In this document: in pieces, positions 14,583-56,655 of the stretch
Layout of the letters: each line of letters starts with the position of its first letter
Position numbering within the stretch: the stretch's first letter is position 1
DNA from: a virus
Taxonomy: Duplodnaviria; Heunggongvirae; Uroviricota; Caudoviricetes
DNA: 64,000 nucleotides
Direction: 5' to 3' (one strand)
Virus record (IMG/VR): IMGVR_UViG_3300025896_000021
Program-made: the position numbers and the translations under genes
The notes under the pieces: generated by a model
Told to the model about the DNA's origin: nothing
Database searches by the model: none
The model's input: the letters and a program-made list of their open reading frames with translations, nothing else

Positions 14583-15027
14583 GATCAAAGAACTAAAAGA
14601 CAAGGGACTAAAGATTGGCATCACCTTTAGCCAATTTGACCTATTGCATGCGGGACATATCGCAATGCTTAGCCAAGCTAAGAACCATTGTGATTATCTT
14701 ATTGCTGCACTGCAAAACAATGCTCAATGGGATCGTCCTGAAAAGAACGAACCTATTCAAAGTATCGTTGAAAGACAGATTAGTTTAAGTGCTGTAAGGT
14801 TTGTAGATGAAATCGTAGTCTACAACACCGAGAAGGACCTTGAAGATATCTTACTCACACTACCTATTGATGTTCGCATTTTGGGTGTAGAGTACAGAGA
14901 CAAAGAATTTACGGGCAAAGATATCTGTGCCCAAAGAAACATTGAATTAGTGTTCAATGGACGTGACCACTCTTTTAGCTCTAGTAGCTTGAGAAAAAGA
15001 GTAGTGGAAGCACAAAAAGGTAAATAA
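14569..15027 (+). CDS. Cytidylyltransferase-like HxGH nucleotidyltransferase (152 aa)
   Basis: ITFSQFDLLHAGHIAML ... YLIAAL ... VDEIVVY resembles glycerol-3-P cytidylyltransferase and RfaE domain II (GxFDxxHxGH). Confidence 0.7.
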   Translation: MIFNKIKELKDKGLKIGITFSQFDLLHAGHIAMLSQAKNHCDYLIAALQNNAQWDRPEKNEPIQSIVERQISLSAVRFVDEIVVYNTEKDLEDILLTLPIDVRILGVEYRDKEFTGKDICAQRNIELVFNGRDHSFSSSSLRKRVVEAQKGK

Positions 15028-15103
15028 GAGTAGCGGCCTTTTAGGGCATCATCCCGCTTTACAAATTCTGCTGCCTATGATATAATATAACATAGGAAAA
15101 ATA

Positions 15104-15583
15104 ATGTCAAAGAAATATTTCAGTACAAAAACATACAAGCAGATTGGACCAGTTGCTTATCGTCAATGGCGTGCAGATAGTCATTGCAATCTAATTCACG
15201 GTTATGCAATGTCGTTTCATTTTGAATTTGAAGCAGACACCCTAGACGCACGAAACTGGGTAACTGACTTTGGTGGACTAAAGCCACTCAAAGCATTGCT
15301 AGAAGATTGGTTTGATCACACATTATTAGTTGCACAAGATGACCCAATGCGTGAAGAATTACTTAACTTGGGTAAACTGAAACTAGCGAAGATTACAGAA
15401 GTAGAAAAGACAGGATGCGAAGGCATTGCTGACTTCTTGTATGAATATGTTAATACAATTTTCTTGCCAAGCTGTGGCAGTGCAGAAGCTGAACGAGTTT
15501 GGTGTACACGGGTTGAAGTGCGTGAGACAGATAACAACATGGCAGGTCGTCAAGGTCGTAGAGAAGATAACGAGTTTCAATAA
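15104..15583 (+). CDS. queD: 6-carboxy-5,6,7,8-tetrahydropterin synthase (QueD)
   Basis: SHCNLIHGYAMSFHFEF ... NWVTDFGGLK fits the QueD / 6-pyruvoyl-tetrahydropterin synthase CxxxHGH motif and fold pattern. Confidence 0.85.
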   Translation: MSKKYFSTKTYKQIGPVAYRQWRADSHCNLIHGYAMSFHFEFEADTLDARNWVTDFGGLKPLKALLEDWFDHTLLVAQDDPMREELLNLGKLKLAKITEVEKTGCEGIADFLYEYVNTIFLPSCGSAEAERVWCTRVEVRETDNNMAGRQGRREDNEFQ

Positions 15584-16431
15584 TGAGTAAATTAAAAATT
15601 AGTGAGTTGTTCTATAGCATTCAGGGTGAAGGGAAGTACATGGGTGTTCCCTCCGTGTTTCTTAGAACATACGGATGCAATTTTACATGCGGTGGCTTTG
15701 GTATGGCCAAGGGAGAAATGAGTAATGAAAGAGATATTATTGCGGTTAAGGCAGAAGATTACACGGATTATAAATCCTTACCACTTGTCAGCACGGGTTG
15801 TGATTCTTATGCATCTTGGGACCCTCGTTTCAAACATCTTAGTCCTGTGCTCGATTCCGATACTATTGCTAACAGCATTTGTGATTTACTGCCTGGACAT
15901 CGTTGGCTCGATGAACACTTGGTTATCACGGGTGGCGAACCGCTTCTTGGTTGGCAAAGAGCGTATCCTGAATTACTTTCGCATGAGAGAATGAAGGGTT
16001 TGCAAGAACTAACATTTGAAACAAACGGTACTCAGATGATTACACCTGAGTTTGGACAGTACTTGCATGACTGGCAAAAGATGAGAATGAAACATTCGGT
16101 CACATTTAGTGTCAGTCCAAAGTTGTCTATCAGCGGTGAGAAAACAGAAGATGCTATCATTCCCGATGTGATCAATCAATATCAAAACTATGGCTCGGTG
16201 TATCTCAAGTTTGTAGTAGCAACTGAATCCGATGTGAAAGAAGCTGAGGATACAGTGTTAGCATACAAGCGTAAAGGATTCAAGGGTCATATTTACTTGA
16301 TGCCATGCGGTGGGGTAGAATCACTATACAATCTAAATGCTAAGAATGTTGCAATCGCAGCAATGAATCGTGGCTGGCGTTATAGTGATAGACTACAGGT
16401 GCCATTGTTTAAGAACGAGTGGGGCACATGA
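15583..16431 (+). CDS. queE: 7-carboxy-7-deazaguanine synthase (QueE, radical SAM)
   Basis: N-terminal SIQGEGKYMGVPSVFLRTYGCNFTC and LVITGGEPLL match QueE. The start is ATGA-coupled to queD. Confidence 0.85.
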   Translation: MSKLKISELFYSIQGEGKYMGVPSVFLRTYGCNFTCGGFGMAKGEMSNERDIIAVKAEDYTDYKSLPLVSTGCDSYASWDPRFKHLSPVLDSDTIANSICDLLPGHRWLDEHLVITGGEPLLGWQRAYPELLSHERMKGLQELTFETNGTQMITPEFGQYLHDWQKMRMKHSVTFSVSPKLSISGEKTEDAIIPDVINQYQNYGSVYLKFVVATESDVKEAEDTVLAYKRKGFKGHIYLMPCGGVESLYNLNAKNVAIAAMNRGWRYSDRLQVPLFKNEWGT

Positions 16432-16679
16432 TTGCAACTAGAATTATAGACAATGACATGGGTGCAGTATTAAAAGTACCTCTAACTGGTAGAGGCACTA
16501 TTCATGGTATTACTATTGTGATTGATGCGGTTAAACTTCCTGAATTTGATATAAGCCTCTTAGAAATATTATCAGTTGACAAGTGCATAGCACGGTTCAC
16601 TACGCACGTAGAAGAACATATATCGGATATAGAAGACCGAGTAAAGTTTATTGACTATTACAAGAAATGGGTAAAATAA
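16419..16679 (+). CDS. Hypothetical protein (86 aa)
   Basis: ORF track. Confidence 0.4.
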   Translation: MGHMIATRIIDNDMGAVLKVPLTGRGTIHGITIVIDAVKLPEFDISLLEILSVDKCIARFTTHVEEHISDIEDRVKFIDYYKKWVK

Positions 16680-18028
16680 TGAAATTATACAGCAAACGAA
16701 TTGCATTCTTAATAAGTGACCAACACTTTATCCCCCACGGTGGAATTGGTTCCTTCTGTAAGAGTTTTACAGAAATGTGTGGCCGATTGAATTGGAAAGT
16801 TGACATTATCTTAGACAAAGCGCCTACTGGTACCTTTGACACAGTTATTAAAAATGCAGGCGCAAATCTAGTATGGCCACTTGAACCACTAAAGTACAGT
16901 GACCACACTGCTACCTTTGCGTTTAGTGATACCATCAACTTTGAAAAGATTATCAACTTTCGCAAAGCATTACTAGAAGCATTTGAAGAAAACGTATATG
17001 ACATGGTGGTGTGTAATACGCAGGAAGCAATGACTGCTGCCTATGCTATGACTATTAACAAGTATATCCCTGTGATATTCTACACCCACTTACATTCAAT
17101 GATTTTTCGTGATAGTCAGGGTAGCGATGTGTTCTTAGATAGCTATCATAATTTCTATAACAAGCATATGGAGTTTACTGATATCGTCATCGGAACACAA
17201 AGTCAAAAGAATATAGATGAGTTAACAAAGTACGGCGCGACAAATACCGCACTTCTACGCATGCCTATGAGTGAGCGTGGTCTATTAGAACACAATGTTA
17301 CTAAGCGAAGTGGGGTGTTATTCATTGGTCGTTGGGAAGAAGGCAAGAACCCAGATGCATATATTCGTGCAATGAAAGAAGCACAACTTCCTTGCAAAGT
17401 AATGACTAACAGCAATGGTGCAAAGAAGTTTGAGAAAGCGTTTGCTGATGCAGGTATTATTGATTATGAAATCAAAGCGGGCATCACTGGTCAAGAAAAA
17501 GTAGACTTTATCACAAGTTCTAGTGTGTTCTTTATGCCAAGTCTGCGTGAGAACTATCCTTTTGCTTTCTTGGAATGTCTTGGTCACATGCCATGCGTAG
17601 TATTAGACAATCAAGATTGGTCAGATAATTTTGATGAAAAATATTTTCATAAAGTAAATGTCAAGAATGTAGCAGAGACAATTAACGCAGTGTACGGATC
17701 AATACAAAGTACGGAGGCACTGGACTATGTACGTGAACTAGACGACCAAGTTGCACATGGTTGGGTAAGTTTTCTAGATAACTTTGTTGGTAAGCGTAGT
17801 AATACATCAGCCGCAAAGATTAACACTTACGAGACAATCAAGTATCGTGATTACATTTCTCAGTTGAATCGCAAGCATTTGGCACGAGAAGACTTTGAAA
17901 GTGTGTTGTCAAACAAGTACAAGTTTATCAATGTTTGGTACACTGACAATGACACATACTTAAGCAAAGACCCAACATTTAAACCAGTAGAGGAAGTAAC
18001 AGGCGCAAGTCTGTTTGAATTCGCATGA
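16667..18028 (+). CDS. GT-B fold glycosyltransferase (GT4-like, about 450 aa)
   Basis: C-terminal FFMPSLRENYPFAFLECLGHMPCVVLD matches the GT4 E-x7-E motif. The alternative start ATG at 16679 overlaps the upstream stop. Confidence 0.6.
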   Translation: MGKIMKLYSKRIAFLISDQHFIPHGGIGSFCKSFTEMCGRLNWKVDIILDKAPTGTFDTVIKNAGANLVWPLEPLKYSDHTATFAFSDTINFEKIINFRKALLEAFEENVYDMVVCNTQEAMTAAYAMTINKYIPVIFYTHLHSMIFRDSQGSDVFLDSYHNFYNKHMEFTDIVIGTQSQKNIDELTKYGATNTALLRMPMSERGLLEHNVTKRSGVLFIGRWEEGKNPDAYIRAMKEAQLPCKVMTNSNGAKKFEKAFADAGIIDYEIKAGITGQEKVDFITSSSVFFMPSLRENYPFAFLECLGHMPCVVLDNQDWSDNFDEKYFHKVNVKNVAETINAVYGSIQSTEALDYVRELDDQVAHGWVSFLDNFVGKRSNTSAAKINTYETIKYRDYISQLNRKHLAREDFESVLSNKYKFINVWYTDNDTYLSKDPTFKPVEEVTGASLFEFA

Positions 18029-18855
18029 AAAAGATTTTGATTACAGGTAACTCAGGTTACATCGGTTCGCATCTTACTAAGATGTTGAAGGGTGAATACG
18101 AGATTCACGGGCTAGATTTAGTGCCTAACAAAATTGATGTTGACAAGCAGCATATTATTGACATTCGTAGGTTGTTTGAACTTCACTACGAATACGATGC
18201 AGTCATTCATTTAGCTGCATTAGTGAACGTAGGCGAGAGTGAATTGAAACCACTGAGTTACTATATCACTAACTTGAACGGCACAATGAATGTACTAAGT
18301 AAAATAAAGACAAAGAACTTTATATTTGCTAGTACCGGCGCCGCAGTCAGTTGTGAGTCAGCATATGGAATCAGCAAAAGAGCAGCAGAAGATGTGGTTC
18401 GTGAATATTGTACTCAGCACAAGGTTACTCCATACACTATCTTTAGATTCTACAATGTGATCGGTAGTGATGGCTTTGCCCCGACAAATCCAGACGGACT
18501 GATGTACAATCTATTGAGAGCTAAAGAGACAGGTGAATTTACTATCTTTGGTAAAGACTATGATATCAGCAGTGACGGTACGTGTGTGCGTGACTATGTT
18601 CACGTGAATGAAATCTGTGATGCATTACGTACAGCAATTGAGAAGCCTAGCAACAGTGTTGAATCATTAGGGCATGGTGTGGGATACACTGTGCAAGAAA
18701 TTGTAGACAAGTTCCAGATCGTCAATGATGTTGACTTTGATGTGAAATATGGTCCTAGAAGAAAGGGCGACATTGCTAGTTCGGTATTAGAAGACGTGTC
18801 ACCTTACATGAGGAACCTCTATACTATGGACGAATTGTTAAAGGTTGACAATTAA
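18025..18855 (+). CDS. NAD-dependent epimerase/dehydratase or sugar reductase (extended SDR, 276 aa)
   Basis: N-terminal Rossmann motif ILITGNSGYIGSHL; catalytic YGISK (YxxxK). Confidence 0.75.
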   Translation: MKKILITGNSGYIGSHLTKMLKGEYEIHGLDLVPNKIDVDKQHIIDIRRLFELHYEYDAVIHLAALVNVGESELKPLSYYITNLNGTMNVLSKIKTKNFIFASTGAAVSCESAYGISKRAAEDVVREYCTQHKVTPYTIFRFYNVIGSDGFAPTNPDGLMYNLLRAKETGEFTIFGKDYDISSDGTCVRDYVHVNEICDALRTAIEKPSNSVESLGHGVGYTVQEIVDKFQIVNDVDFDVKYGPRRKGDIASSVLEDVSPYMRNLYTMDELLKVDN

Positions 18856-20386: not shown

Positions 20387-20415
20387 TTGACATTTAATGA
20401 ATTTGGTGCTATAAT
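20387..20415 (+). promoter_or_regulatory. Early sigma70-type promoter, TTGACA-17-TATAAT family
   Basis: TTGACAtttaatgaatttggtgcTATAAT, about 33 nt upstream of the 20448 ATG. Confidence 0.7.
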
Positions 20416-20447
20416 AGAGACTTCTTACAAGCAACTGGATTCATAAA

Positions 20448-22078: not shown

Positions 22079-22107
22079 TTGACATTTTTTAAATATACGA
22101 CTATAAT
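22079..22107 (+). promoter_or_regulatory. Early promoter, TTGACA-17-TATAAT
   Basis: TTGACAttttttaaatatacgacTATAAT, just upstream of rnh. Confidence 0.65.
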
Positions 22108-22113
22108 AGACAC

Positions 22114-23121
22114 ATGACTACATATGCCCTCATCGATACTGCCAACACTTTTTTTCGTGCCCGTCACGTGGCCGCGCGCGGCACTGACGCAGAAGAAAAA
22201 GTTGCACAAGCCTTGCACATTACATTCGCATCAGTCAATCAAGCTGTTCGCAAATATGGAATTGATCATGTCGTATTCTGTTTAGAGGGCAGGTCGTTTC
22301 GCAAGGACATGTATGCTCCGTATAAAAAGAATCGCATTGTTGATGCACAATCAGTTACTGAGGCTGAGGCTGAGGAAAGCAAACTTTTTTGGGACACGTA
22401 TGAAAAATTCACTACGTATCTCAAAGACCGTACTAATGTAAGTGTCCTCAGGCATCCTCAGGCAGAAGCTGACGATATGATTGCCCGATTCCTCGCACTG
22501 CATCCCGAAGACGAACATTTTATCATCAGCACCGATACAGATTACAACCAGTTGATCACCGATAAAGTTAAACAATATAATGGGGTGCTCGGCGAGCTTG
22601 CAACACTGGCCGGATATTTTAAAGAGTCGGGCAAGCCCGTATTAGACAAAGAAAAAAATCCCAAGTTGCTTGAGGATCCTGAGTATCTACTTTTTCGCAA
22701 GTGCATTAGGGGAGATTCAAGCGATAATATTTTCAGTGCTTTTCCGGGAGTGCGTGAAGTTGGTAGTAAAAACAAAGTTGGTATCAAAGAGGCATTTGAA
22801 GACCGTCACAAAATGGGATTTTCGTGGAACAATCTGATGTTGCAACGCTGGTCCGATCATGAGGGCAATGAGGTTCGTGTCAAAGATGCATATGAACGCA
22901 ATCGCACACTTATCGATTTGACAGCACAGCCCCAAGATTTGAAAGATGCGTTTGATAAAACTATCAAGGAATCTTTGCAACCCCGAAATACAACACAAGT
23001 TGGCATCCATTTAATGAAGTTCGCGGGCAAGTATGATTTACCCAAGATTGCAGATCAAGCGGAAACATACTCAAAATGGCTCAACAGTACTTACAACGGT
23101 CCTTTAATTGAAAGTAAATAA
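22114..23121 (+). CDS. rnh: 5'-3' exonuclease / RNase H (FEN family)
   Basis: N-terminal ALIDTANTFFRARH (PIN-like 5' nuclease motif) and ISTDTDYNQL metal-binding block. Confidence 0.8.
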   Translation: MTTYALIDTANTFFRARHVAARGTDAEEKVAQALHITFASVNQAVRKYGIDHVVFCLEGRSFRKDMYAPYKKNRIVDAQSVTEAEAEESKLFWDTYEKFTTYLKDRTNVSVLRHPQAEADDMIARFLALHPEDEHFIISTDTDYNQLITDKVKQYNGVLGELATLAGYFKESGKPVLDKEKNPKLLEDPEYLLFRKCIRGDSSDNIFSAFPGVREVGSKNKVGIKEAFEDRHKMGFSWNNLMLQRWSDHEGNEVRVKDAYERNRTLIDLTAQPQDLKDAFDKTIKESLQPRNTTQVGIHLMKFAGKYDLPKIADQAETYSKWLNSTYNGPLIESK

Positions 23122-27344: not shown

Positions 27345-27368
27345 AAAAAGCCCCTTAATCGGGGCTTT
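27345..27368 (+). terminator. Hairpin terminator, 8-bp stem AAAGCCCC-TTAAT-GGGGCTTT
   Basis: Perfect 8-bp stem directly after the 27075 ORF stop. The U-tract is weak. Confidence 0.5.
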
Positions 27369-27375
27369 CCTACGG

Positions 27376-27404
27376 TTGACGTTAAATCGTTTTGGGTATA
27401 TAAT
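27376..27404 (+). promoter_or_regulatory. Early promoter, TTGACG-17-TATAAT (conserved-spacer family)
   Basis: TTGACGttaaatcgttttgggtaTATAAT. The downstream ATG at 27411 lies only 6 nt past the -10, so the mRNA is probably leaderless. Confidence 0.65.
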
Positions 27405-27410
27405 ACACTC

Positions 27411-27662
27411 ATGTTTAAATATACAGCACATCCAGAAGTCATCCGTAAGTACAAGAGCATCCGCCAGAACTCCAAGAAGCCCTGGGACGACCAGTTTTTC
27501 TTTGCAGTGGAAATCTGTGGTAGTTCTAAAGCCTACTTCGCCTGCGGTGACTTCTGGAAGCACTACAAGACAATGGAGTTCTACAGTGTAGAGAAGCGTA
27601 CGGAAGTTCCGGTCAACGGTGTTCTGATTCCAGTGCATTATTTTACGGAAACCAAAACTTGA
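27411..27662 (+). CDS. Hypothetical small early protein (83 aa)
   Basis: ORF track. Confidence 0.5.
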   Translation: MFKYTAHPEVIRKYKSIRQNSKKPWDDQFFFAVEICGSSKAYFACGDFWKHYKTMEFYSVEKRTEVPVNGVLIPVHYFTETKT

Positions 27663-27687
27663 CATTAAATGGTTTTGGGTATATAAT
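27659..27687 (+). promoter_or_regulatory. Early promoter, TTGACA-17-TATAAT (conserved-spacer family)
   Basis: TTGACAttaaatggttttgggtaTATAAT followed by the conserved leader gtacacatacactgaaaaacaaggaac. Confidence 0.75.
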
Positions 27688-27718
27688 GTACACATACACT
27701 GAAAAACAAGGAACTAAT

Positions 27719-27931
27719 ATGAAACTCAATATCAACGACAAAGTAGAATGGTTTTCTGCTGCAGGCTTGCTGAATGGTTCTATCAAGAATGTGGTTCTGA
27801 GCGAAAATGCTCAATATGAGACTGTTCCTTGGATTGACATTGAAGTTATCAACAAATTTGGTCGTCCTTACTCGGTTCGTCTGTGCGCAACTCACAGCAA
27901 CCTGATCATGATGCAAGTATCCAAAATTTGA
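27719..27931 (+). CDS. Hypothetical small early protein (70 aa)
   Basis: ATG follows the RBS AAGGAAC. The track ORF 27659.. begins with TTG inside the promoter and is trimmed here. Confidence 0.5.
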   Translation: MKLNINDKVEWFSAAGLLNGSIKNVVLSENAQYETVPWIDIEVINKFGRPYSVRLCATHSNLIMMQVSKI

Positions 27932-27956
27932 CATTAAATGGATTTGGGTATATAAT
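27928..27956 (+). promoter_or_regulatory. Early promoter, TTGACA-17-TATAAT (conserved-spacer family)
   Basis: TTGACAttaaatggatttgggtaTATAAT plus a leader identical to that of the 27659 promoter. Confidence 0.75.
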
Positions 27957-27987
27957 GTACACATACACTGAAAAACAAGGAACACAA

Positions 27988-28218
27988 ATGCAAATCGGAA
28001 CTATCATCAAGTCTTTTGACTTCCCCGGCAACTTGAACTGCTACATGGTTGGTACTGTGACTAAGGTAGAAGGTGACTTCATTACTTGCGTGACAATCAA
28101 ACAAGTGTTTGACGGCAAAGCATTGCCCAACGAAAAGTTCAACAAAGAGTTCCGCACAGTGGTTCAGGGTGCTGGTATGTTTGACGAATCCTTTCAACGA
28201 GTAGTCGTTGTAGGTTGA
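27988..28218 (+). CDS. Hypothetical small early protein (76 aa)
   Basis: ATG after AAGGAAC; trimmed from the track ORF 27883... Confidence 0.5.
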   Translation: MQIGTIIKSFDFPGNLNCYMVGTVTKVEGDFITCVTIKQVFDGKALPNEKFNKEFRTVVQGAGMFDESFQRVVVVG

Positions 28219-28243
28219 CATTAAATGGTTTCGGTGATATAAT
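28215..28243 (+). promoter_or_regulatory. Early promoter, TTGACA-17-TATAAT (conserved-spacer family)
   Basis: TTGACAttaaatggtttcggtgaTATAAT followed by leader agaatcttaaacagtaacaaggaa. Confidence 0.75.
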
Positions 28244-28273
28244 AGAATCTTAAACAGTAACAAGGAATACATC

Positions 28274-28447
28274 ATGGCAGGCAAAGCAAAATCGGTCTAT
28301 CTCACAGTCACCCCAATTGGTACGCTGTCGAGCGTATTTCGTAAGGTGTTCTTTGACGCTAAGGCATACAATGAATTCGTGAAGTCAGAGGAATTCATGG
28401 AGAAGTATCCTACTGCACAATTTCAAATTCTCAAGGAAATTTATTGA
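28274..28447 (+). CDS. Hypothetical small early protein (about 57 aa)
   Basis: Read by hand and below the track cutoff. ATG follows the RBS AAGGAAT after the promoter. Coordinates are +/-1. Confidence 0.4.
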   Translation: MAGKAKSVYLTVTPIGTLSSVFRKVFFDAKAYNEFVKSEEFMEKYPTAQFQILKEIY

Positions 28448-28598
28448 TCACTACACTTTCCGCGACTATCCTCAACCCTAACAACAAACACACAATGATC
28501 AAAACTATTCAACCGCAACTTCCAAAGCCTATCAAGTCCTCAACTGGTGGCACTATCACTTACACTAAAACAGGGTTGATTCACACACAGAAATAAAG

Positions 28599-28627
28599 GT
28601 TGACGGTAAATGGCTTTGGGTATATAA
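28599..28627 (+). promoter_or_regulatory. Early promoter, TTGACG-17-TATAAT (conserved-spacer family)
   Basis: TTGACGgtaaatggctttgggtaTATAAT followed by leader agaatcttaaacagtaaagaacaggac. Confidence 0.75.
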
Positions 28628-28661
28628 TAGAATCTTAAACAGTAAAGAACAGGACTATAAA

Positions 28662-37125: not shown

Positions 37126-38334
37126 ATGAATATGAACGAAGACCATAATTTAATAGACCATTGCAACTTTTGTGGCAACAGTAAAGACGCTGTAAAGAAA
37201 CTAATCGTCGGTGAGGGCATTGCTATTTGCAATGACTGTGTTGATCTATGCCAAACATTAATTGAAGATGAATCTTCGGTTAGTGTAGCAGAACCTCCTG
37301 AGCCAGTACATGATCCAGAAGCTATTAAAGAGTATTTGGATAAACATGTTATTGGACAAGACGAAGCCAAGATGGTTCTTAGCGTAGCTATTGCTAATCA
37401 TTATAAACGAATCAACAATCCACCAAAAGATATTGAAATTCAAAAGGGTAATGTTCTCATTGTAGGTCCTACTGGTAGTGGTAAAACTCTATTAGCTAAG
37501 ACAGCAGCGAAATATCTCAAAGTGCCCTTTGTCGTAGCAGATGCGACTAGTTTGACCGAAGCAGGTTATGTAGGTGATGACGTTGAGAGCATGATTAATA
37601 TGCTTATCAATGCAGCCGATGGCGATGTTAAACTTGCAGAGCGTGGTATCATCTTTATTGATGAAATTGACAAGATCGCCCGCAAAGGTGAAAGTGCTAG
37701 TATCACACGTGACGTATCGGGCGAAGGTGTACAGCAAGCACTACTCAAATTAGTAGAAGGTACGACTTGTCGTATCCCTGCACAAGGTGGACGTAAGCAT
37801 CCGGGTGGTGAAATGTCAGAAATTAACACCAAAGACATTCTCTTTATCGCAGGTGGAGCCTTTGTTGGATTGAAAGATGTTATTGCCACTCGTATGAATG
37901 GCACTAGCATTGGGTTTCATGCTTCTATCAGTGATAGCAAAGTTGAAGGTGAACTAACAAAGGTTAGTCCTGATGATTTAACTAGATATGGAATGATTCC
38001 TGAGTTTATCGGACGTTTCACTACAACAGTAAGCATTGGTGAATTGAATAAAGAGCAATTGGTACATATTCTCACTGATGTTAAGAACAACTACATTAGT
38101 CAGTATAAGTATTTGTTAAGTTTGGACAACATCCAGCTATCATTTACTACTGATGCTTTAGAACAGATGGCAGAAAACACACTGCTATTGAAGACTGGTG
38201 CTAGAGGCTTACATACAGAAATTGAACGTGTGCTTATGTGCCACATGTTTCACACTAGGTTGTATAAGAAAAACAACATAACAATTCTGTTAATTGATAA
38301 AGAACGGGTAATAAACCCGGCTCCTATCATTTAA
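37126..38334 (+). CDS. clpX: ClpX-like AAA+ unfoldase
   Basis: N-terminal C4 zinc-binding domain (CNFCGNS...CNDC). Walker [17 protein letters not shown], Walker [11 protein letters not shown] and the GYVG pore loop are present. Confidence 0.85.
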
Positions 38335-38428
38335 TAGTCGCATATATTGCACAAGAGGGTGCAATATATATTATAGTAGATGCCTTCGGGGTCTATCACA
38401 AAAATCTTGCTTTCTAAAGGAGAAAAAA

Positions 38429-40330
38429 ATGAGCAAAGTCATCGGTATCGACTTAGGTACCACAAATTCATGCGTAGCCGTCATCGAAAACGGAATCCCC
38501 AAAATAATTGAAAACAGCGAAGGTACTAGAACCACGCCAAGTATCGTAGCATATGCTAACGGTGAAATCTTGGTAGGTGCAAGTGCTAAACGTCAAGCAG
38601 TTACAAACCCCAAAAACACAATTTATGCTAGCAAGCGATTGATCGGACGTAAGTTTGATGAACAAGCTGTACAAAAAGACATTGACTTGATGCCATACAC
38701 TATTATCAAGAATGAGAATGGTGATGCTTGGGTTCAAGTCAACGAAGATAAGCTAGCGCCCCCGCAAATCTCTGCCGAAGTCTTGCGTAAGATGAAGAAG
38801 ACCGCAGAAGATTATCTTGGTCACGAAGTAACTCAAGCAGTTATCACAGTGCCAGCATACTTTAATGATAGTCAACGTCAAGCAACTAAGGATGCAGGTC
38901 GTATTGCTGGATTAGAAGTGTTGCGTATTATCAATGAACCAACTGCGGCAGCACTTGCGTACGGTGTTGACAAGCAAGACAAGAAAGACCGCAAGATTGC
39001 AGTCTATGACTTGGGTGGTGGTACGTTTGACGTATCTATCATTGAAATTGCAGACGTTGATGGTGATAAACAGTTTGAAGTATTGTCTACGAATGGTGAT
39101 ACATTCTTAGGTGGTGAAGACTTTGACCAACGCATTATGGATTTCTTGGTTGATACATTCAAACAAGAACAGGGCATTGACTTGAAAAAGGATATGCTTG
39201 CATTGCAACGTTTGAAAGAAGCGGCAGAAAAAGCTAAGATTGAATTGTCTAGTTCTGCAAGCACTAGTGTTAACTTGCCTTACGTTACTGCGGATGCAAG
39301 TGGTCCAAAGCATTTGAACATTACAATCAATCGTTCTAAACTAGAAAGTCTAGTTGAAGAATTGATCCTACGTAGCATTGAGCCATGCAAGATTGCTATG
39401 AAAGATGCAGGCGTTACTAACGCAGACATTGACGAGGTTATCCTCGTCGGTGGTATGACACGTATGCCTAAAGTTGTTGAAGCAGTTGAGAAATTCTTCG
39501 GCAAGGCACCTCGTAAAGATGTTAACCCAGACGAAGCAGTAGCAGCAGGCGCAGCTATTCAAGGTGATGTGCTAGGTGGTGGACGTAAAGACGTATTGTT
39601 GCTTGATGTGACTCCACTAAGTCTTGGTATCGAGACTATGGGCGGTGTAATGAGTAAGTTGATTCAAAAGAACACAACTATTCCTACTAAAGCTAGTCAA
39701 ACATTCAGTACAGCGGAAGATAATCAACCTGCAGTTACTATCAAAGCATTTCAAGGTGAACGTGAGCTAGCACAGTTCAATAAACTATTGGGTGAGTTCA
39801 ATCTTGAAGGTATTGTTCCAGCAAGACGCGGTATGCCTCAGATTGAAGTTACATTGGACATCGATGCTAACGGTATCTTGAGTGTAAGTGCTAAAGATAA
39901 GAACACTGGCAAAGAAAATAAGATCACTATCAAAGCTAATAGTGGATTGACCGAAGCTGAAATTCAAGCAATGGTTAAAGACGCTGAACTTAATGCAGAA
40001 TCTGATAAGAAGGCACGTGAGTTAATTGAAGCACGTAACAGTGCAGAAGGTACACTACGTACATTCAAGGAAGACTTTGACAAGTATGGTGACAAAGTAA
40101 CTGCCGAAGAGAAAACACTAGCGGAAGACGCTATCAAAGCATTGGAAGAAGCAGTTAAGGGTGAAGACGTATCTGTTATCCAAGAAGCTATTCCCAAACT
40201 GTACGAAGCAATTGGACCAATTACTAAGGTGAAACAGGATGCAGAGGCAGCAGAGCAATCATCTGCTACTGAAGCACCGGTTGATGATAACGTAGTTGAT
40301 GCAGAAGTGAAGGAGAGTAAGAATGTCTAA
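38429..40330 (+). CDS. dnaK: DnaK (Hsp70) chaperone
   Basis: [22 protein letters not shown] and the rest of the sequence read as a canonical full-length Hsp70 (633 aa). Confidence 0.95.
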
Positions 40331-40772
40331 TGGAACACTAACGCTACGTTCAATTGATATTCCATCAATTCATAAGTTTGGTATTGGGTTTGAATCAGTG
40401 TTAGATGAACTGATGCGAATGAATGCAGGGCAGACAACTACAAACTACCCTCCCTATAACATTGTTAAACGTTCTGAAAATGACTTTGATATTGAACTAG
40501 CAGTTGCTGGGTTTACTGAAGGGGAAATTGATATCCAAATTGAAAATAGGGTGTTAGTCATCACCGGAACGAAGCACATGAACTTTGATGAACCTAAAGA
40601 GTATCTACACCATGGTATTAGTAATAGGAATTTTGTGCGTGAGTTTACTCTCGCTGAACACGTAGAAGTCAAAGACGCAGAAAATGCTAACGGTATCTTA
40701 ACTCTTCACCTAGAACGAAAACTTCCTGAAGAAATGAAGCCAAAGAGTATTGCTATTAAATACAATACCTAA
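40323..40772 (+). CDS. Hsp20/alpha-crystallin family small heat-shock protein
   Basis: C-terminal alpha-crystallin-like block ...[14 protein letters not shown]... similar to IbpA/B; overlaps the dnaK stop. Confidence 0.6.
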
Positions 40773-40807
40773 TATAATAGACACTGCACACACAATGAAA
40801 GAAAAAA

Positions 40808-41119
40808 ATGGCACAAACACAAATTGATTCAGTCGTTAGCATTAAACCCATCATTGATATCCCTGAGCCACCGCTGTTCAAGGTAATCTATATCAATGAT
40901 GAATTGACTAGTATGGAGTTTGTTATTCGTACTTTAGTGGATCATTTTCATTATACAAGTGACACCGCAGTTGGTATCACTACTGGCATTCATGAATCCG
41001 GTAGTGCAGTAGTTGCAGTGTTGCCGTATGAAATTGCCGAACAAAAAGGCATTGAAGTAACTATGGAAGCACGTACAGAAGGCTACCCGCTACAAGTTAA
41101 GATTGAAGCTGCGTCTTAA
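40808..41119 (+). CDS. clpS: ClpS-like Clp adaptor protein
   Basis: PLFKVIYINDELTSMEFVIRTLVDHF matches the ClpS core (YKVxLxNDDxTPMEFV). Confidence 0.75.
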   Translation: MAQTQIDSVVSIKPIIDIPEPPLFKVIYINDELTSMEFVIRTLVDHFHYTSDTAVGITTGIHESGSAVVAVLPYEIAEQKGIEVTMEARTEGYPLQVKIEAAS

Positions 41120-41811: not shown

Positions 41812-41873
41812 ATAAGTATTTATGTGGGAATAGGACGCTAGCGTCCTATTTCTTTTAGTACAAGTAAAACAAA

Positions 41874-42164: not shown

Positions 42165-42221
42165 GTTATAATCTCCTTCTACTACTATTTAGAAAAGGAT
42201 TAGAACCGTGAAAAAAAACTT

Positions 42222-44694: not shown

Positions 44695-44723
44695 TTGACT
44701 TTAACTAGGTTTGGTGATATAAT
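44695..44723 (+). promoter_or_regulatory. Early promoter, TTGACT-17-TATAAT
   Basis: TTGACTttaactaggtttggtgaTATAAT, 7 nt before the ATG at 44730. Confidence 0.65.
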
Positions 44724-44729
44724 AGCTGT

Positions 44730-45875: not shown

Positions 45876-45904
45876 TTGACATTAAATGGTTTCGGTGATA
45901 TAAT
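45876..45904 (+). promoter_or_regulatory. Early promoter, TTGACA-17-TATAAT (conserved-spacer family)
   Basis: TTGACAttaaatggtttcggtgaTATAAT followed by leader agaatcttaaacagtagagaacaggaaac. Confidence 0.75.
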
Positions 45905-45937
45905 AGAATCTTAAACAGTAGAGAACAGGAAACATAA

Positions 45938-49112: not shown

Positions 49113-49116
49113 GTAG

Positions 49117-49147
49117 AAAAAGAGTACTTCGGTACTCTTTTTTTCGG
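49117..49147 (+). terminator. Rho-independent terminator AGAGTAC-TTCG-GTACTCT plus T7
   Basis: 7-bp stem, tetraloop, TTTTTTT tail. An identical element lies at 55038. Confidence 0.6.
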
Positions 49148-49156
49148 GTTAAAAGG

Positions 49157-49185
49157 TTGACAGTAAATGGATGGTATGATATACT
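49157..49185 (+). promoter_or_regulatory. Promoter TTGACA-17-TATACT
   Basis: Immediately follows the terminator; about 30 nt upstream of the HD-domain gene. Confidence 0.6.
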
Positions 49186-49215
49186 GTAAGTACAGTAAGA
49201 GAAAGGGCACAAATT

Positions 49216-53856: not shown

Positions 53857-53860
53857 AACA

Positions 53861-53898
53861 ATGAGGGCCTTGACAAGCCCTCATTTTTATAGTATACT
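53861..53898 (+). terminator. Terminator hairpin ATGAGGGC...GCCCTCAT plus T5, with an embedded TTGACA-17-TATACT promoter
   Basis: 8-bp stem. The loop contains TTGACA, and TATACT lies 17 nt downstream, so the element doubles as a promoter. Confidence 0.5.
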
Positions 53899-55023: not shown

Positions 55024-55037
55024 TCGGTAGCATATAG

Positions 55038-55066
55038 GAAAGAGTACTTCGGTACTCTTTTTTTTG
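55038..55066 (+). terminator. Rho-independent terminator AGAGTAC-TTCG-GTACTCT plus T9
   Basis: Identical stem-loop to the 49117 element. Confidence 0.6.
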
Positions 55067-55067
55067 G

Positions 55068-55096
55068 TTGACATTTAATCAATTTGGGTGTATAAT
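55068..55096 (+). promoter_or_regulatory. Early promoter, TTGACA-17-TATAAT
   Basis: TTGACAtttaatcaatttgggtgTATAAT directly after the terminator. Confidence 0.7.
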
Positions 55097-55128
55097 GTAT
55101 CTTTACACAGACACACTGGAGATGGTTA

Positions 55129-55665
55129 ATGAGCAAAGTCCTAATCGGCGTCACTTGTACTGCACTGGTCGCGGTACTTGGAGTTCAACAATATCAACTG
55201 GCAACAATTTCACAGGATGTAGCTGAAATTAAACAAGCATTCATTACTCAAACGAATGAGCAGGTTGCATTCACTGAAAAAGACCAAGATTGTTTAGCTA
55301 AAAATGTTTACTACGAAGCTGGCATTGAAAGTGAAAAAGGCAAATATGCAGTCGCACAAGTTACACTCAACCGATTGAAATCCGGTAAATGGGGTAACAG
55401 CGTTTGCAGCGTAGTCCATGCAAAAAGTCAGTTTTCCTGGACATTGAAAAAGAAGTTAGAGAAACCTAGTGGCACGGCGTGGGCTGATAGTCAATGGGTC
55501 GCTCACCGAGTATTGCACGGAGATCGGGTTACACCTCTTAAGGACGCAATGTTCTACCATGCTGAATACGTCAGTCCAAAGTGGCGTGATCCTGTTGCAA
55601 AAATACAACAGATTGGTCAGCACATCTTCTATACCAAAGCAAAAATGAAGGTAACCAATATTTGA
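55129..55665 (+). CDS. SleB-like cell-wall hydrolase (Hydrolase_2 family) with N-terminal signal-anchor; candidate SAR-type endolysin
   Basis: N-terminal TM segment VLIGVTCTALVAVLGV. CLAKNVYYEAG...AVAQVTLNRLKS matches the SleB-family core. Confidence 0.6.
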   Translation: MSKVLIGVTCTALVAVLGVQQYQLATISQDVAEIKQAFITQTNEQVAFTEKDQDCLAKNVYYEAGIESEKGKYAVAQVTLNRLKSGKWGNSVCSVVHAKSQFSWTLKKKLEKPSGTAWADSQWVAHRVLHGDRVTPLKDAMFYHAEYVSPKWRDPVAKIQQIGQHIFYTKAKMKVTNI

Positions 55666-55690
55666 CGTTAAATGGGTTTGGTGATATAAT
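55662..55690 (+). promoter_or_regulatory. Early promoter, TTGACG-17-TATAAT (conserved-spacer family)
   Basis: Followed by leader agaatcttaaacagtcaagaggag. Confidence 0.75.
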
Positions 55691-55720
55691 AGAATCTTAA
55701 ACAGTCAAGAGGAGTTCAAG

Positions 55721-55939
55721 ATGGGTTACAAGATCGTTGCAGACAAAGACACAATGGACATGATGCGTACAAAGTACGGTCCTCGCAAAGGTCTTGAGGG
55801 CCCGTTCAACTTCTCGGGACGAGTGTTGTATTATGACAACAAAGAAGGTCAGTACTACGATCCTACTACCGACTTCTATCTGGAACAAAGTGAAATGGAC
55901 ATGATCCACAAACGGATCACTGACATTCTCAAGGCTTGA
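55721..55939 (+). CDS. Hypothetical small early protein (72 aa)
   Basis: ORF track. Confidence 0.5.
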   Translation: MGYKIVADKDTMDMMRTKYGPRKGLEGPFNFSGRVLYYDNKEGQYYDPTTDFYLEQSEMDMIHKRITDILKA

Positions 55940-55964
55940 CATTAAATGGTTTTGGGTATATAAT
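55936..55964 (+). promoter_or_regulatory. Early promoter, TTGACA-17-TATAAT (conserved-spacer family)
   Basis: TTGACAttaaatggttttgggtaTATAAT. Confidence 0.75.
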
Positions 55965-55997
55965 ACATACATAGACAGTTAATTAAAGGACACGAAA

Positions 55998-56297
55998 ATG
56001 CAAGCACTCACAGAACGTCAAAAAACTCTCATTGTCAATAACGTGGTCAAGGCAGTGAAAAACATTGATAACCTGAACAAGACTGGTTACAACTTTTTGT
56101 ATCTGTGCAGTGGTTTCATTGCACACTATGACATGTACGGTTTCATCTCCAACTATTCTGATGGTACTTTGGAACAAGATATCCTGTCCTATGCAGGTCA
56201 GAATCAATGGAAAAACTTTCGTCCCGGCGAACGTGATTACGAATACTACATGGCAAAGGCCGATGTTTACAATCGGATCCTCGCAGAAATCGCTTGA
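55998..56297 (+). CDS. Hypothetical small early protein (99 aa)
   Basis: ORF track. Confidence 0.5.
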   Translation: MQALTERQKTLIVNNVVKAVKNIDNLNKTGYNFLYLCSGFIAHYDMYGFISNYSDGTLEQDILSYAGQNQWKNFRPGERDYEYYMAKADVYNRILAEIA

Positions 56298-56322
56298 CAT
56301 TAAATGGTTTTGGGTATATAAT
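56294..56322 (+). promoter_or_regulatory. Early promoter, TTGACA-17-TATAAT (conserved-spacer family)
   Basis: Overlaps the stop of the upstream ORF; leader agaatcttagacagtaaagaaaaggac. Confidence 0.75.
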
Positions 56323-56354
56323 AGAATCTTAGACAGTAAAGAAAAGGACTCAAA

Positions 56355-56600
56355 ATGTTAGTTATCAAGCGTTTCAAACAGACCCAGAAGTTTCGTGTTA
56401 TCGTTGGTCCAGCATGTTTCTATTCTACCGCTAAACAGATTCGCAATAATGTCGGTGACTTTTACAAGTGCAATGCTGCTACTCAAAAGGCGCTTGATGC
56501 ACTAGAATTCACCCGCTCCGGAGATGGAATCGCTGACCAATGTGCATGCGGTATCGCTGGAACTTGGGAAGATTTGGCAATTCAGTTGACTATGGCTTGA
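56355..56600 (+). CDS. Hypothetical small early protein (81 aa)
   Basis: ORF track. Confidence 0.5.
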   Translation: MLVIKRFKQTQKFRVIVGPACFYSTAKQIRNNVGDFYKCNAATQKALDALEFTRSGDGIADQCACGIAGTWEDLAIQLTMA

Positions 56601-56625
56601 CATTAAATGGTTTTGGTGATATAAT
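56597..56625 (+). promoter_or_regulatory. Early promoter, TTGACA-17-TATAAT (conserved-spacer family)
   Basis: Leader agaatcttaaacagtcaaaaggaaatc. Confidence 0.75.
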
Positions 56626-56655
56626 AGAATCTTAAACAGTCAAAAGGAAATCAAA

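Follow-up and report, generated by a model that had tools for sequence, protein, structure and literature searches.

The window, the whole 64-kb stretch of DNA analysed here, comes from an uncultured jumbo phage of ~359 kb in the T4 superfamily; its DNA polymerase is 42-48% identical to those of Phosso, Atu_ph07 and RaK2 and less than 50% identical to that of any deposited phage, and an rIIA gene is present. Searching the window with TTGACNTTAAATGGTTTTGGNNATATAAT and allowing up to 3 mismatches, we found 11 matches, all on the plus strand, against 0.00 expected from 100 shuffles, and the repeat family is confirmed as real. These strict copies start at 27376, 27659, 27928, 28215, 28600, 44695, 45876, 55662, 55936, 56294 and 56597, and three looser copies with 5-8 spacer mismatches start at 20387, 55068 and 49157. 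The general layout is GG-TTGACA-N17-TATAAT followed by an A-rich, unstructured leader of ~30 nt with a Shine-Dalgarno site. The members of this family, here called type A, and the features around them are:

20387..20447, plus strand: looser promoter and leader, 6 spacer mismatches, TGn, related leader AGAGACTTCTTACAAG, before a 397-aa gene
27345..27370, plus strand on the terminator reading (the scan itself called the minus strand): stem-loop AAAAAGCCCCTTAATCGGGGCTTT, directly 5' of the promoter at 27376
27376..27404, plus strand: type A promoter, TTGACG-N17-TATAAT, 1 spacer mismatch; 83-aa ORFan at 27411-27662, its ATG 7 nt past the -10
27659..27718, plus strand: type A promoter with 0 mismatches and leader GTACACATACACTGAAAAACAAGGAAC; ATG 27719, 70-aa ORFan; upstream stop is the TGA within the -35
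27928..27987, plus strand: type A promoter with 1 mismatch and leader GTACACATACACTGAAAAACAAGGAAC; ATG 27988, 76-aa ORFan; upstream stop is the TGA within the -35
28215..28273, plus strand: type A promoter, GGTGA variant (TGn extended -10), and leader AGAATCTTAAACAGT...AAGGA; ATG 28274, 57 aa; upstream stop within the -35
28600..28661, plus strand: type A promoter with TTGACG and AGAATCTTAAACAGT leader; ATG 28662, 68 aa
44636-44663: terminator upstream of the promoter at 44695
44695..44723, plus strand: divergent type A promoter, TTGACT, 5 spacer mismatches, TGn; ATG 7 nt past the -10
44730-45875: gene for a 381-aa FG-GAP lipoprotein-like product, a candidate leaderless mRNA from the promoter at 44695
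45876..45937, plus strand: type A promoter, GGTGA variant, and AGAATCTTAAACAGT leader, before rIIA (45938-48094)
49116..49215, plus strand: composite of a hairpin with the same sequence as that at 55037 and a divergent promoter at 49157-49185 (TATACT, 8 spacer mismatches); ATG 49216, HD-domain protein
53860..53898, plus strand: non-family promoter with its -35 TTGACA in the loop of a G+C-rich hairpin, AATGAGGGCC-TTGACA-AGCCCTCATT
55037..55128, plus strand: terminator-promoter composite of hairpin AAGAGTACTTCGGTACTCTTTTTTTT, looser type A promoter at 55068-55096 (5 mismatches) and leader; ATG 55129, cell-wall hydrolase
55662..55720, plus strand: type A promoter with TTGACG, GGTGA variant, and AGAATCTTAAACAGT leader; ATG 55721, 72 aa; upstream stop within the -35
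55936..55997, plus strand: type A promoter with 0 mismatches and leader ACATACATAGACAGTTAATTAAAGGAC; ATG 55998, 99 aa; upstream stop within the -35
56294..56354, plus strand: type A promoter with 0 mismatches and leader AGAATCTTAGACAGT; ATG 56355, 81 aa; upstream stop within the -35
56597..56655, plus strand: type A promoter, GGTGA variant, and AGAATCTTAAACAGT leader; ATG 56656, 141 aa, phrog_1987; upstream stop within the -35

An earlier, sequence-only reading of this DNA had described at least 15 such copies, each with an invariant 17-nt spacer and a small gene behind it, and many with a near-identical leader. The spacer length holds in 14 of 14 family copies, with 0-1 hexamer mismatch. The count comes down to 13 at up to 6 spacer mismatches, or 14 if the copy at 49157 is included. 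Fourteen of the listed sites belong to the family, with 28599 corrected to 28600, and two fall outside it: 22079 is a perfect TTGACA-N17-TATAAT whose spacer differs at 11 of 17 positions, which is chance level, and the site at 52338 is weak and shifted, a derivative whose spacer has 9 of 17 mismatches. The leader is near-identical in part of the family, AGAATCTTAAACAGT being present at 0-1 mismatch in six copies (28215, 28600, 45876, 55662, 56294 and 56597) and partially at 55936, whereas the leader common to 27659 and 27928, GTACACATACACTGAAAAACAAGGAAC, is a different one, and the copies at 27376 and 44695 have none; these two are candidates for leaderless mRNAs, since their ATG lies 7 nt after the -10. 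Small products of 57-141 aa follow nine copies, but the others are of 147, 178, 381, 397 and 718 aa, the last being rIIA.

Hairpins are found only at the copies that open an array (27345-27370, 44636-44663, 49116-49145 and 55037-55065), and for the remaining nine to ten, folding is not in excess (z = -0.4 to +2.4). Each array starts after a terminator hairpin and is free of internal terminators, so that each gene would receive both its own strong start and read-through from upstream. Comparable repeated cassettes, the promoter-early stem-loops (PeSLs), are known from the T4-type phages RB49/phi1, PST/T4 and nt-1/KVP40 (Arbiol 2010, PMC2839356; Comeau 2014, PMC4122927). Classical composites of terminator and promoter occur in the window at 27345, 49116 and 55037. 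We read the stem-loop at 27345-27370 as the stem-loop half of a PeSL-type composite that insulates the 27.4-28.9 kb array; the composite at 55037-55128 has the classical PeSL layout and opens the 55-57 kb array, and the hairpin-loop -35 at 53860-53898 is classical PeSL architecture in the same window.

The proposal that these are early-type promoters for RNA polymerase with the host primary sigma factor is well supported by the number of strict copies, strand bias, ATG spacing and the kinship of the phage with T4-type jumbo phages, and it is from such sequence features that we infer promoter activity, early timing and recognition by the host polymerase. Across 715 kb of protein-anchored relatives, the consensus TTGACA-N17-TATAAT occurs 582 times on the gene strand versus 8 times on the other. 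The first ORF-opening ATG lies 26-34 nt or exactly 6-7 nt past the -10, ~14% of the clade's promoters being without a leader, and AGGA-type Shine-Dalgarno sites precede the downstream ATG. Upstream, 150 of 339 type A contexts use the TGA within the -35 as the stop codon of the preceding gene. G stands at -37 and -36 in 58-72% of the promoters (GG in 8 of the 14 window copies), and the copies carry a GT-rich/TGn sequence, TTTGGGTA or TTTGGTGA, just 5' of -12. Enrichment for A is confined to -40..-38 (0.53-0.66), and information falls to ~0 upstream of -41, leaving about three A's and GG before the -35; the sequence further upstream is mostly coding.

Several of these traits recur in T4-like early promoters, where G-36, the GTTGAC motif, C at -3..-1 and a block rich in G and T on the 5' side of -12 have been described (PMC1524935), as well as extra consensus regions beyond the hexamers (PMC2988021). 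The likeness to this group (T4, RB69, RB49, RB43, 44RR, Aeh1 and KVP40; PMC1524935, PMC2988021) extends to use of the host primary sigma, which is predicted here, to G-36, to GTTGAC as in RB49, RB43 and Aeh1, to the GT-rich/TGn sequence, to C near -1, to added consensus beyond the hexamers and to the placement of many promoters before novel ORFs. In contrast, about three A's appear to be what is left of the A-rich UP-like element that spans -40..-44 in T4-like promoters; the hexamers match the sigma70 consensus exactly instead of reading GTTTAC; and the copies are far more uniform, many genomes carrying identical 29-mers, with several discrete families of spacer and leader side by side. It has been described that sigma70 senses the spacer near -18 (PMC3130263). 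PA5oct, a related jumbo phage in the RaK2-like group, has TTGAC/TATAATA motifs near RNA-seq start sites (bioRxiv 10.1101/406421); the sigma70-type promoters and the A right after the -10 are as here, but that paper reports no conserved spacer or leader and no cassette behaviour.

The family is widespread in metagenomes. At least 119 IMG/VR contigs contain the exact 20-mer, against 0 of 50,697 deposited phage genomes; megablast of 26-30 kb of the window against deposited phages gave no match, and a 57-nt cassette gave only marginal matches (E ~0.4). Type A makes up 55-62 of 314 consensus promoters in the protein-anchored relatives, alongside other discrete families of spacer and leader, and is gone where anchor-protein identity drops below ~50%. 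The type A spacer is paired with an AGA..CTTA.ACAGT leader in 33 of 62 cases, and spacer and leader types also recombine. Genome contigs (596 Gb) gave 20 single matches, about the number calculated for a pattern with 18 specified bases, and only two of these (L153 and L164) run on into TATAAT, so they offer no clue to the host. A search for the host with the phage DnaK returned, among all 120 matches listed (81-100% identity), metagenomic proteins or generically labelled DnaK.

What is repeated is the cassette and not the gene behind it. In 121 non-redundant contexts the cassette is a sharp-edged conserved block of ~65 nt whose flanks carry ~0 bits, and the downstream proteins are unrelated across copies and mostly ORFans; those behind 27659 and 27928, for example, are unrelated to each other. 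This lack of similarity among downstream proteins, which extends even to two genes behind identical 56-nt cassettes, leads us to reject a recent tandem duplication of the promoter together with its gene. The earlier suggestion of promoter-leader cassette duplication survives in the sense that cassettes alone appear to have been copied, exchanged and replaced at gene junctions before unrelated genes, and fails as recent tandem duplication without constraint. Comparison with relatives shows the same plasticity. Orthologues of rIIA have, at the same position, a type A cassette, a cassette of another family or no promoter. The 27411 gene is flanked by two copies in the window, while L009 lacks the unit of promoter and gene and has a single promoter at the junction; L027 has a 1.4-kb insertion between two cassette copies at the 56597 site; and the module of promoter 49157 and gene 49216 lies upstream of rIIA in L120 and L037, unlike in the window. 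Altogether we found 42 distinct single-gene indels of 195-1419 nt bounded by direct repeats of the promoter cassette; recombination is the presumed copying mechanism. In RB49/phi1, recombination of PeSL cassettes has been shown experimentally, and recombination between neighbouring cassettes yields mini-circles (PMC2839356, PMC4122927).

At the same time, the cassettes are constrained beyond the hexamers, as the sequence-only reading had suspected. Within the spacer, T.AAT (about -28..-24) and TTTGG (-20..-16) are nearly invariant and adjacent positions vary freely in two independent sets of copies, in both of which mismatches depend strongly on position along the cassette (chi-square 200, df 31); the leader, too, has near-invariant positions in both. 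Retained orthologous cassettes are also much more similar than 4-fold degenerate sites. Orthologues of the 56656 gene with a 4-fold-site identity of 0.38-0.54 keep 15 of 15 leader positions and 10-14 of 17 spacer positions. At saturated third-position divergence, at least 12 of 17 spacer matches are kept in 24% of orthologues versus a binomial expectation of 3%, and the leader is kept at 15 of 15 in 13%, in statistics whose pairs are not phylogenetically independent. Orthologous cassettes are bimodal, either strongly retained or replaced outright. Averaged over all pairs, spacer and 4-fold-site identities run in parallel (0.71/0.89, 0.75/0.79, 0.60/0.67, 0.53/0.55, 0.40/0.48 and 0.28/0.30), but we reject neutral spacer drift as their explanation, because the average mixes the two modes. 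Two copies from one locus resemble each other slightly more than copies from different loci do (0.729 vs 0.709; reached in 0 of 1000 permutations). Neutral gene conversion alone would not produce one consensus across genomes with saturated synonymous sites; selection or horizontal exchange of cassettes between co-infecting relatives may, either of them, account for the constancy.

We consider it fairly probable (roughly 60%) that the repeats are T4-type early promoter-leader cassettes, PeSL-like but mostly without a stem-loop, which are copied by recombination and held by position-specific selection. The 5' edge of such a cassette would often give the upstream gene its stop, in the form of the TGA in TTGACA; GG, TTGACA, the 17-nt spacer and TATAAT would be read by host primary-sigma RNA polymerase; and the ~30-nt unstructured, A-rich leader with its Shine-Dalgarno site would start the next gene, usually an ORFan. 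Homologous recombination between cassettes would insert, delete, relocate and replace gene modules, and could overwrite one family with another. Purifying selection would act on G-37/G-36, on T.AAT around -28..-24, on TTTGG around -20..-16, on the A after the -10, on the pyrimidine before the start and on TTA/CAG in the initial transcribed region, so that the likeness of the copies beyond the hexamers would reflect a portable unit together with selection at particular positions. The simplest cause of this selection would be a full polymerase footprint and a 5'-UTR tuned for strong binding, promoter escape and translation. In T5 PN25, where the initial transcribed sequence matters, and in lambda PL and trp/tac, the whole footprint from -40 to +20 influences strength and promoter escape; these are single promoters and not a multicopy recombining family. 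The start of the type A spacer (A/T, T, A, A, A/T, T) presumably resembles lambda PL TTGACATAAAT... and trp/tac TTGACAATTAATCAT..., a likeness that we take as a lead only.

For the transcribed part of the cassette, and compatibly with the recombining-cassette explanation, the leader could act mainly as RNA, through its primary sequence, as a translational enhancer rich in A/U (S1-/epsilon-like contact), or as the target either of a RegA-like repressor or of a nuclease resembling RegB or RNase E; we hold this as a tentative, rather doubtful possibility. Its core, TA(A/G)ACAG(T/C)AA, is kept in distant relatives with unrelated spacers and is extended in many relatives to CAGTTAATTAAAGGA, which reaches the Shine-Dalgarno site, and the complete retention of the leader at 4-fold-site identities of 0.38-0.54 would fit a role in the transcript. 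However, the most conserved leader positions are common to all 240 non-A consensus promoters of the clade, which share an A after the -10, a pyrimidine at -1, T at +2 and A at ~+7, and this argues for start-site and escape constraints at the DNA level; moreover, the ~14% of promoters without a leader manage without it. A structured 5'-UTR element found no support, and a riboswitch or attenuator is rejected: 0 pairs remain in the consensus fold computed for 24 leaders, Rfam gave no match in the window, and 14 of 14 window leaders fold less stably than their shuffled versions (z = +0.5 to +2.5). Such weak folding is what an accessible ribosome-loading region would be expected to show. No RegA or RegB homologue was seen among ~50 window proteins searched against Pfam and PHROGs, a scan that leaves many small ORFs outside.

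Extra recognition by a phage factor or modified RNA polymerase, which had been suggested from conservation beyond the hexamers, is a weaker candidate, and we found no support for it. The type A spacer and initial transcribed sequence would then be the site of a dedicated trans-acting factor, whether a DNA-binding regulator (encoded or injected) or a phage-modified, Alt-like polymerase; this is unlikely, as is the related idea that type A forms a separately timed regulon, for instance immediate-early and later silenced, with genes joining and leaving it through cassette exchange. It is true that T.AAT, TTTGG and several leader positions are near-invariant beside free neighbours, and since the spacers of the 240 non-A promoters are uninformative except for TG at -15/-14, the two spacer blocks are not a general requirement of the polymerase and leave room for a family-specific reader. 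The same 240 promoters, with the leader positions that the families have in common, nevertheless count against a dedicated factor, and T4-like early promoters in general have G-36, the GT-rich block and C at -1 (PMC1524935). Several discrete families with a clade-specific distribution would be expected under co-evolution with a lineage-specific protein, yet orthologous genes freely switch families or lose the promoter, and spacer types recombine with leader types. In T4, Alt acts in a sequence-dependent way and stimulates only a subset of the early promoters (PMC2988021), but no candidate regulator was identified in the window: Pfam and PHROGs, run on the same ~50 proteins with many small ORFs outside the scan, gave no homologue of Alt, AsiA or MotA and no obvious DNA-binding regulator. 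Furthermore, the conserved blocks lack dyad symmetry; inspection of the cassette by eye for dyads and LexA- or IHF-like boxes gave only a 4+4 palindrome, CATTAAATG, which is lost in the common variant TTGACAATAAAT. The most specific version, in which T.AAT, TTTGG and CTTA..CAG are read by a lineage-specific phage factor and type A is a temporally distinct regulon evolving by cassette swapping, seems quite improbable; if true, it would be a portable, factor-addressed promoter module in a widespread jumbo-phage clade known only from IMG/VR metagenome contigs.

Least probable by far, and already largely refuted by the retention and position-specific data, is that the similarity only records recent duplication or gene conversion of promoter-leader segments, spacer and leader being free of functional constraint: cassettes clearly are copied and exchanged, average spacer identity tracks 4-fold-site identity and within-locus copies are the more alike, but that average blends replaced with strongly retained cassettes, mismatches are far from uniform in both independent sets, one consensus spans genomes with saturated synonymous divergence, and the flanking genes are not duplicated.

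These probable early-promoter cassettes are a variant of the swappable T4-like early-promoter cassettes already known and not a new kind of system. Like PeSLs, they are a repeated composite that runs from an upstream stop codon through a near-perfect TTGACA-N17-TATAAT to a Shine-Dalgarno site and start codon; they are found among ORFans where the genomes are plastic, at the borders of segments that related genomes have inserted, deleted, replaced or relocated, and they have a sequence flavour of their own lineage. Unlike PeSLs, 9-10 of the 14 family copies have neither a stem-loop nor an A/T-rich upstream region, the upstream gene ending inside the -35; conservation in the spacer and over the first ~15 transcribed bases is specific to position; and the phage is a distant jumbo relative whose family is known only from metagenomes. 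The finding extends PeSL-style shuffling of regulatory cassettes from cultured T4-like phages to a large, uncultured clade of jumbo phages, and shows that a cassette can behave in this way without a stem-loop. The clade also offers natural variants, in the hundreds, of a promoter with perfect consensus whose spacer and initial-transcribed positions are either frozen or free, a data set on what RNA polymerase, or a factor, reads between the hexamers and downstream of them. In practical terms, the cassettes flag gene starts, leaderless ones included, and recombination joints in metagenomic contigs of jumbo phages.

A search of the window with TTGACNTTAAATGGTTTTGGNNATATAAT, allowing up to three mismatches, returned 11 matches, all on the + strand, where shuffled sequences give an expectation of 0.00, and a relaxed scan added three further members, at 20387, 55068 and 49157. 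These sites form a real repeat family, here called type A (GG-TTGACA, a conserved spacer and TATAAT, mostly with an A-rich leader and a Shine-Dalgarno sequence; copies are named by their start coordinate), in which all spacers are 17 nt long and no copy has more than one hexamer mismatch. The whole window holds 24 + strand sites with this spacing and at most one hexamer mismatch, and 13 of them carry a type A spacer (at most 6/17 mismatches). The family listed in the sequence-only reading is thus sound (11 strict and 3 looser members), apart from one start that moves from 28599 to 28600 and two sites that drop out: 22079 matches the promoter consensus perfectly and has a spacer of unrelated sequence (11/17 mismatches), and 52338 is a weak, shifted derivative (9/17 mismatches). 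Its claim of a near-identical leader holds for AGAATCTTAAACAGT (0-1 mismatch) in six copies, with a related leader at 55936, and fails elsewhere: 27659 and 27928 share a leader distinct from AGAATCTTAAACAGT, and 27376 and 44695 have no leader, the ATG lying 7 nt past the -10.

The reading that we favour, at a probability of about 0.6, is that of predicted early promoter-leader cassettes that would be read by the host polymerase, swapped through homologous recombination and also held by position-specific selection, which would act over the polymerase footprint and the 5'-UTR. A role of the leader at the RNA level, possibly alongside this, we consider possible but doubtful. The leader core TA(A/G)ACAG(T/C)AA is kept in distant relatives despite unrelated spacers, and in many relatives leader conservation reaches the Shine-Dalgarno sequence, as CAGTTAATTAAAGGA. 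All 14 window leaders are less stably folded than shuffled sequences (z = +0.5 to +2.5), the consensus fold of 24 diverse leaders has zero base pairs, and an Rfam scan of the window gave no matches. Three genes have their ATG exactly 7 nt past a consensus -10, lack a Shine-Dalgarno sequence and are candidates for leaderless mRNAs:

22079-22116: promoter region of the FEN-type nuclease gene, ATG at 22114
27376-27413: promoter region of an 83-aa ORFan, ATG at 27411
44695-44732: promoter region of an FG-GAP lipoprotein-like gene, ATG at 44730

Among 813 distinct consensus promoters of the clade, 111 have the first ORF-opening ATG 6-7 nt past the -10, and a distance of 8-20 nt is almost never seen; some of the ATGs at 6-7 nt may be in-frame upstream ATGs. 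The exact 11-mer GAGATAGACTC has only two copies in the window, at 49886-49896 and 52381-52391, both within the unusually long leaders of two NAD-salvage genes:

49926-50951: NMN-adenylyltransferase/Nudix gene, NatV-like by domain reading
52423-53856: NAMPT gene

In the NAMPT leader, GAGATAGACTC centres a perfect 7-bp inverted repeat, CCTAGAG-ATAGA-CTCTAGG (hairpin 52377-52395), and relatives keep GATAGAC in the leader of the NMN-adenylyltransferase/Nudix gene. The 11-mer may be a shared regulatory site of the two genes.

The exact 20-mer TTGACATTAAATGGTTTTGG occurs in at least 119 IMG/VR stretches, which hold 394 copies at up to five mismatches and the exact 29-mer 139 times. Genes common to the window and these contigs have just 67-79% DNA identity, with the exception of fragment L011 (99.9%). 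The 57-nt cassette (promoter plus leader) found no real match among deposited phages, and a genome_contigs scan for the cassette pattern gave matches at chance level only. Against ascertainment bias, relatives were sampled blind to promoters through two protein anchors, rIIA (27 loci, 55-96% identity) and the 141-aa product of 56656-57081 (80 loci, 42-92% identity). In 715 kb of anchored loci, 582 consensus promoters lie on the gene strand versus 8 on the opposite strand, and 55 of 314 non-redundant promoters carry a type A spacer (0.4 expected). Spacers cluster into discrete families, including type A (62 members),.AtAATTCCCaaTtTGC (32) and ATAAATc.aaa.TcTGa (30), and leaders do likewise, linked to the spacer families, type A coming with an AGA..CTTA.ACAGT leader in 33/62. 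The type A share of promoters is 0.38-0.67 at anchor identities of at least 75-80%, 0.26-0.29 at 60-80%, 0.06 at 50-60% and 0 below 50%, while the density of consensus promoters remains 0.4-1.25 per kb at all anchor distances; type A is therefore clade-specific and not required by the polymerase. The 240 non-A promoters have uninformative spacers except for TG at -15/-14, and have in common GG at -37/-36, an A after the -10, a pyrimidine at -1 and T at +2. That the type A blocks are missing from these promoters would suit a lineage-specific factor recognising them, but Pfam and PHROGs scans of about 50 window proteins found no candidate and families swap freely at orthologous genes, so that we regard such a factor as unlikely. 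Further multicopy cassette families occur in related metagenomic loci (L121-L128, L183, L200 and others), for example TTGACAATAAATCCAAACTCTGATACAAT with leader ACTTGTATTGACACTG; the leader start ACTTGTAT, from other-family cassettes in relatives, stands behind no promoter of the window. Distant relatives also have G+C-rich hairpins within the promoter spacer, such as TTGACACGGGCTCCGGCCCGTGTTATAAT.

With regard to the favoured reading, of cassettes both exchanged and selected, related loci differ at promoter copies. In L009, a single promoter links the 27345 terminator straight to the orthologue of 27719-27931, and the window has at this junction an extra gene (27411-27662) between two promoter copies. 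Where the window has promoter 56597, L027 carries a 1.4-kb insertion flanked by two copies, and in L120 and L037 the module of promoter 49157 and an HD-domain gene is found upstream of rIIA. The rIIA promoter itself is type A in the window, of another family in L120, L121 and L126, and absent in L145 and L122. An all-against-all comparison of loci gave 247 distinct tight-junction insertions, 106 with a consensus promoter at the joint; 42 insertions of 195-1419 nt, mostly single-gene, are bounded by promoter-containing direct repeats of at least 25 nt, and degraded half-cassettes are found at some joints.

Averaged over orthologous promoter-gene units, spacer identity follows identity at 4-fold degenerate codon positions, and neutral drift of the spacer, as these averages suggested, was dropped because the distribution is bimodal. 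For type A reference copies whose orthologues have a third-position identity below 0.55, 70% of partner spacers have at most 7/17 matches and, judged from their sequences, are replaced cassettes, and the leader is kept at 15/15 in 13%. The sequence-only reading had proposed setting spacers against neutral expectation, and retained spacers do exceed it, 24% having at least 12/17 matches versus a binomial expectation of 3% at p = 0.45, in pairs and copies that are not fully phylogenetically independent. Some orthologues of 56656-57081 keep the leader at 15/15 and the spacer at 10-14/17 though 4-fold-site identity is 0.38-0.54, and others have a wholly different cassette family or lack a promoter. 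The anchored loci gave 27 non-redundant copies, among which the spacer is invariant at positions 4, 6, 10, 11, 13 and 14 and the leader at positions 3, 6 and 8; variation affects 22-63% of copies at positions 1, 7-9 and 15-17 of the spacer and 4, 5, 7, 10 and 15 of the leader (position dependence of mismatches: chi-square 200, df 31). An independent set of 77 copies repeats this spacer profile, and its free position 9 shows each of the three alternative bases. Position-dependent mismatches in both sets, whose copies are likewise not fully independent phylogenetically, indicate that specific cassette positions are held and that copying alone is insufficient. The interpretation in the sequence-only reading is right in part: constraint beyond the hexamers is upheld, and pure duplication without constraint, named there as an outcome that would speak against it, is largely refuted and highly improbable.

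In L177, some 60-90 nt 5' of position 3001, an orthologous promoter has a spacer matching the window copy at 15/17 and TCGACA as its -35, at an anchor protein identity of just 51-55%; this near-perfect type A spacer may have been retained over a deep divergence, or the cassette may have been acquired horizontally. The rIIA gene (45938-48094) has a consensus promoter inside its own coding sequence, in the 3' portion (47772-47800) and ahead of the ORF that follows (48072-49112), which is presumably rIIB. Both hexamers of this promoter stay in place in every rIIA relative, the most distant having 55% protein identity, and its spacer tracks the rIIA coding sequence.

Across 121 contexts with non-redundant flanks, the conserved block has a sharp 5' edge about 5 nt ahead of the -35 (AAA, then GG), spans the 29-mer and the first ~25 transcribed bases and ends at the Shine-Dalgarno sequence, the flanks holding ~0 bits. 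The upstream ORF stops at the TGA within TTGACA at 7 of the 14 window copies (27659, 27928, 28215, 55662, 55936, 56294 and 56597); the related loci repeat this at 150 of 339 type A contexts and 243 of 779 consensus promoters (distinct ones in both counts), versus 20 and 91 for upstream stops through the other two frames at the -35. Arrays at 27.4-28.9 kb and 55.0-57 kb start 3' of terminator hairpins (27345-27370 and 55037-55065), and no hairpins were found inside them. The proteins encoded downstream of the window copies have no mutual relationship, even behind two cassettes identical across 56 nt, and most have no Pfam or PHROGs family. The same terminator hairpin AAGAGTACTTCGGTACTCTTTTTTT (UUCG loop) stands at 49116-49145 and 55037-55065; since both copies are followed by GG-TTGACA, these are true terminator-promoter composites.

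Promoter-early stem-loop cassettes (PeSLs) are repeated in plastic regions of T4-type genomes, in the order upstream stop codon, A/T-rich tract, sigma70-consensus promoter, stem-loop, Shine-Dalgarno sequence and start codon; they were shown to be strong promoters and terminators, and their recombination yields indels and mini-circles (PMC2839356, PMC4122927). Features described for T4-like early promoters are conservation of G at -36 (GTTGAC in RB49, RB43 and Aeh1), a block rich in G and T 5' of -12, a C near -1 and "additional regions of consensus" (PMC1524935, PMC2988021). The spacer near -18 is sensed by sigma70 (PMC3130263), and the related jumbo phage PA5oct has TTGAC/TATAATA motifs at RNA-seq start sites (bioRxiv 10.1101/406421). 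Type A resembles PeSLs in promoter, boundaries, location and indels, but most copies lack the stem-loop and the A/T tract, and the family is therefore classed as a stem-loop-less variant of the PeSL/T4 early-promoter kind. A PeSL-like arrangement in the window is the non-family promoter 53860-53898, whose -35 lies in a hairpin loop.

A search with 26-30 kb of the window found no close DNA relative among 50,697 deposited phages. The window's B-family DNA polymerase has 48% identity to Sinorhizobium phage Phosso and Agrobacterium phage Atu_ph07 and 42% to RaK2, GAP32 and CBB, its genes include rIIA, ATP-dependent ligase, NAMPT, a FEN-type nuclease and UvdE, and a 359,393-bp contig carries an identical DnaK; as far as gene content and protein identity go, these mark the window as a piece of an uncultured jumbo phage of the T4 superfamily. 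It has a protein-quality-control set (37126-44615):

37126-38334: ClpX
38429-40330: full-length DnaK/Hsp70 (847 bits)
40323-40772: Hsp20
44025-44615: ClpP

Among the matches listed for DnaK are 120 relatives at 81-100% identity, all metagenomic and some on 170-360 kb contigs. Positions 1-1899 have 50% G+C versus ~40% in the rest of the window, with GGT-rich repeats encoding glycine-rich proteins; from its TIG, He_PIG and Gly_rich_2 domains, the 490-aa ORF there is probably a structural or fibre protein. A T4-type late-promoter motif, TATAAATA, lies at 2739 on the minus strand, ~70 nt upstream of the minus-strand gene 2663-1971. The cluster 9209-18855 includes:

12138-12812: GTP cyclohydrolase I
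15104-15583: 6-pyruvoyl-tetrahydropterin synthase (PTPS family), read as QueD-like

It also encodes three cytidylyltransferase-like proteins, a cupin/mannose-6-P-isomerase fusion, an NAD-dependent epimerase and two glycosyltransferases (weak matches), and might function in glycan synthesis or in DNA modification of the 7-deazaguanine type. Modification of the phage DNA, should it occur, could affect how its promoters are recognised.
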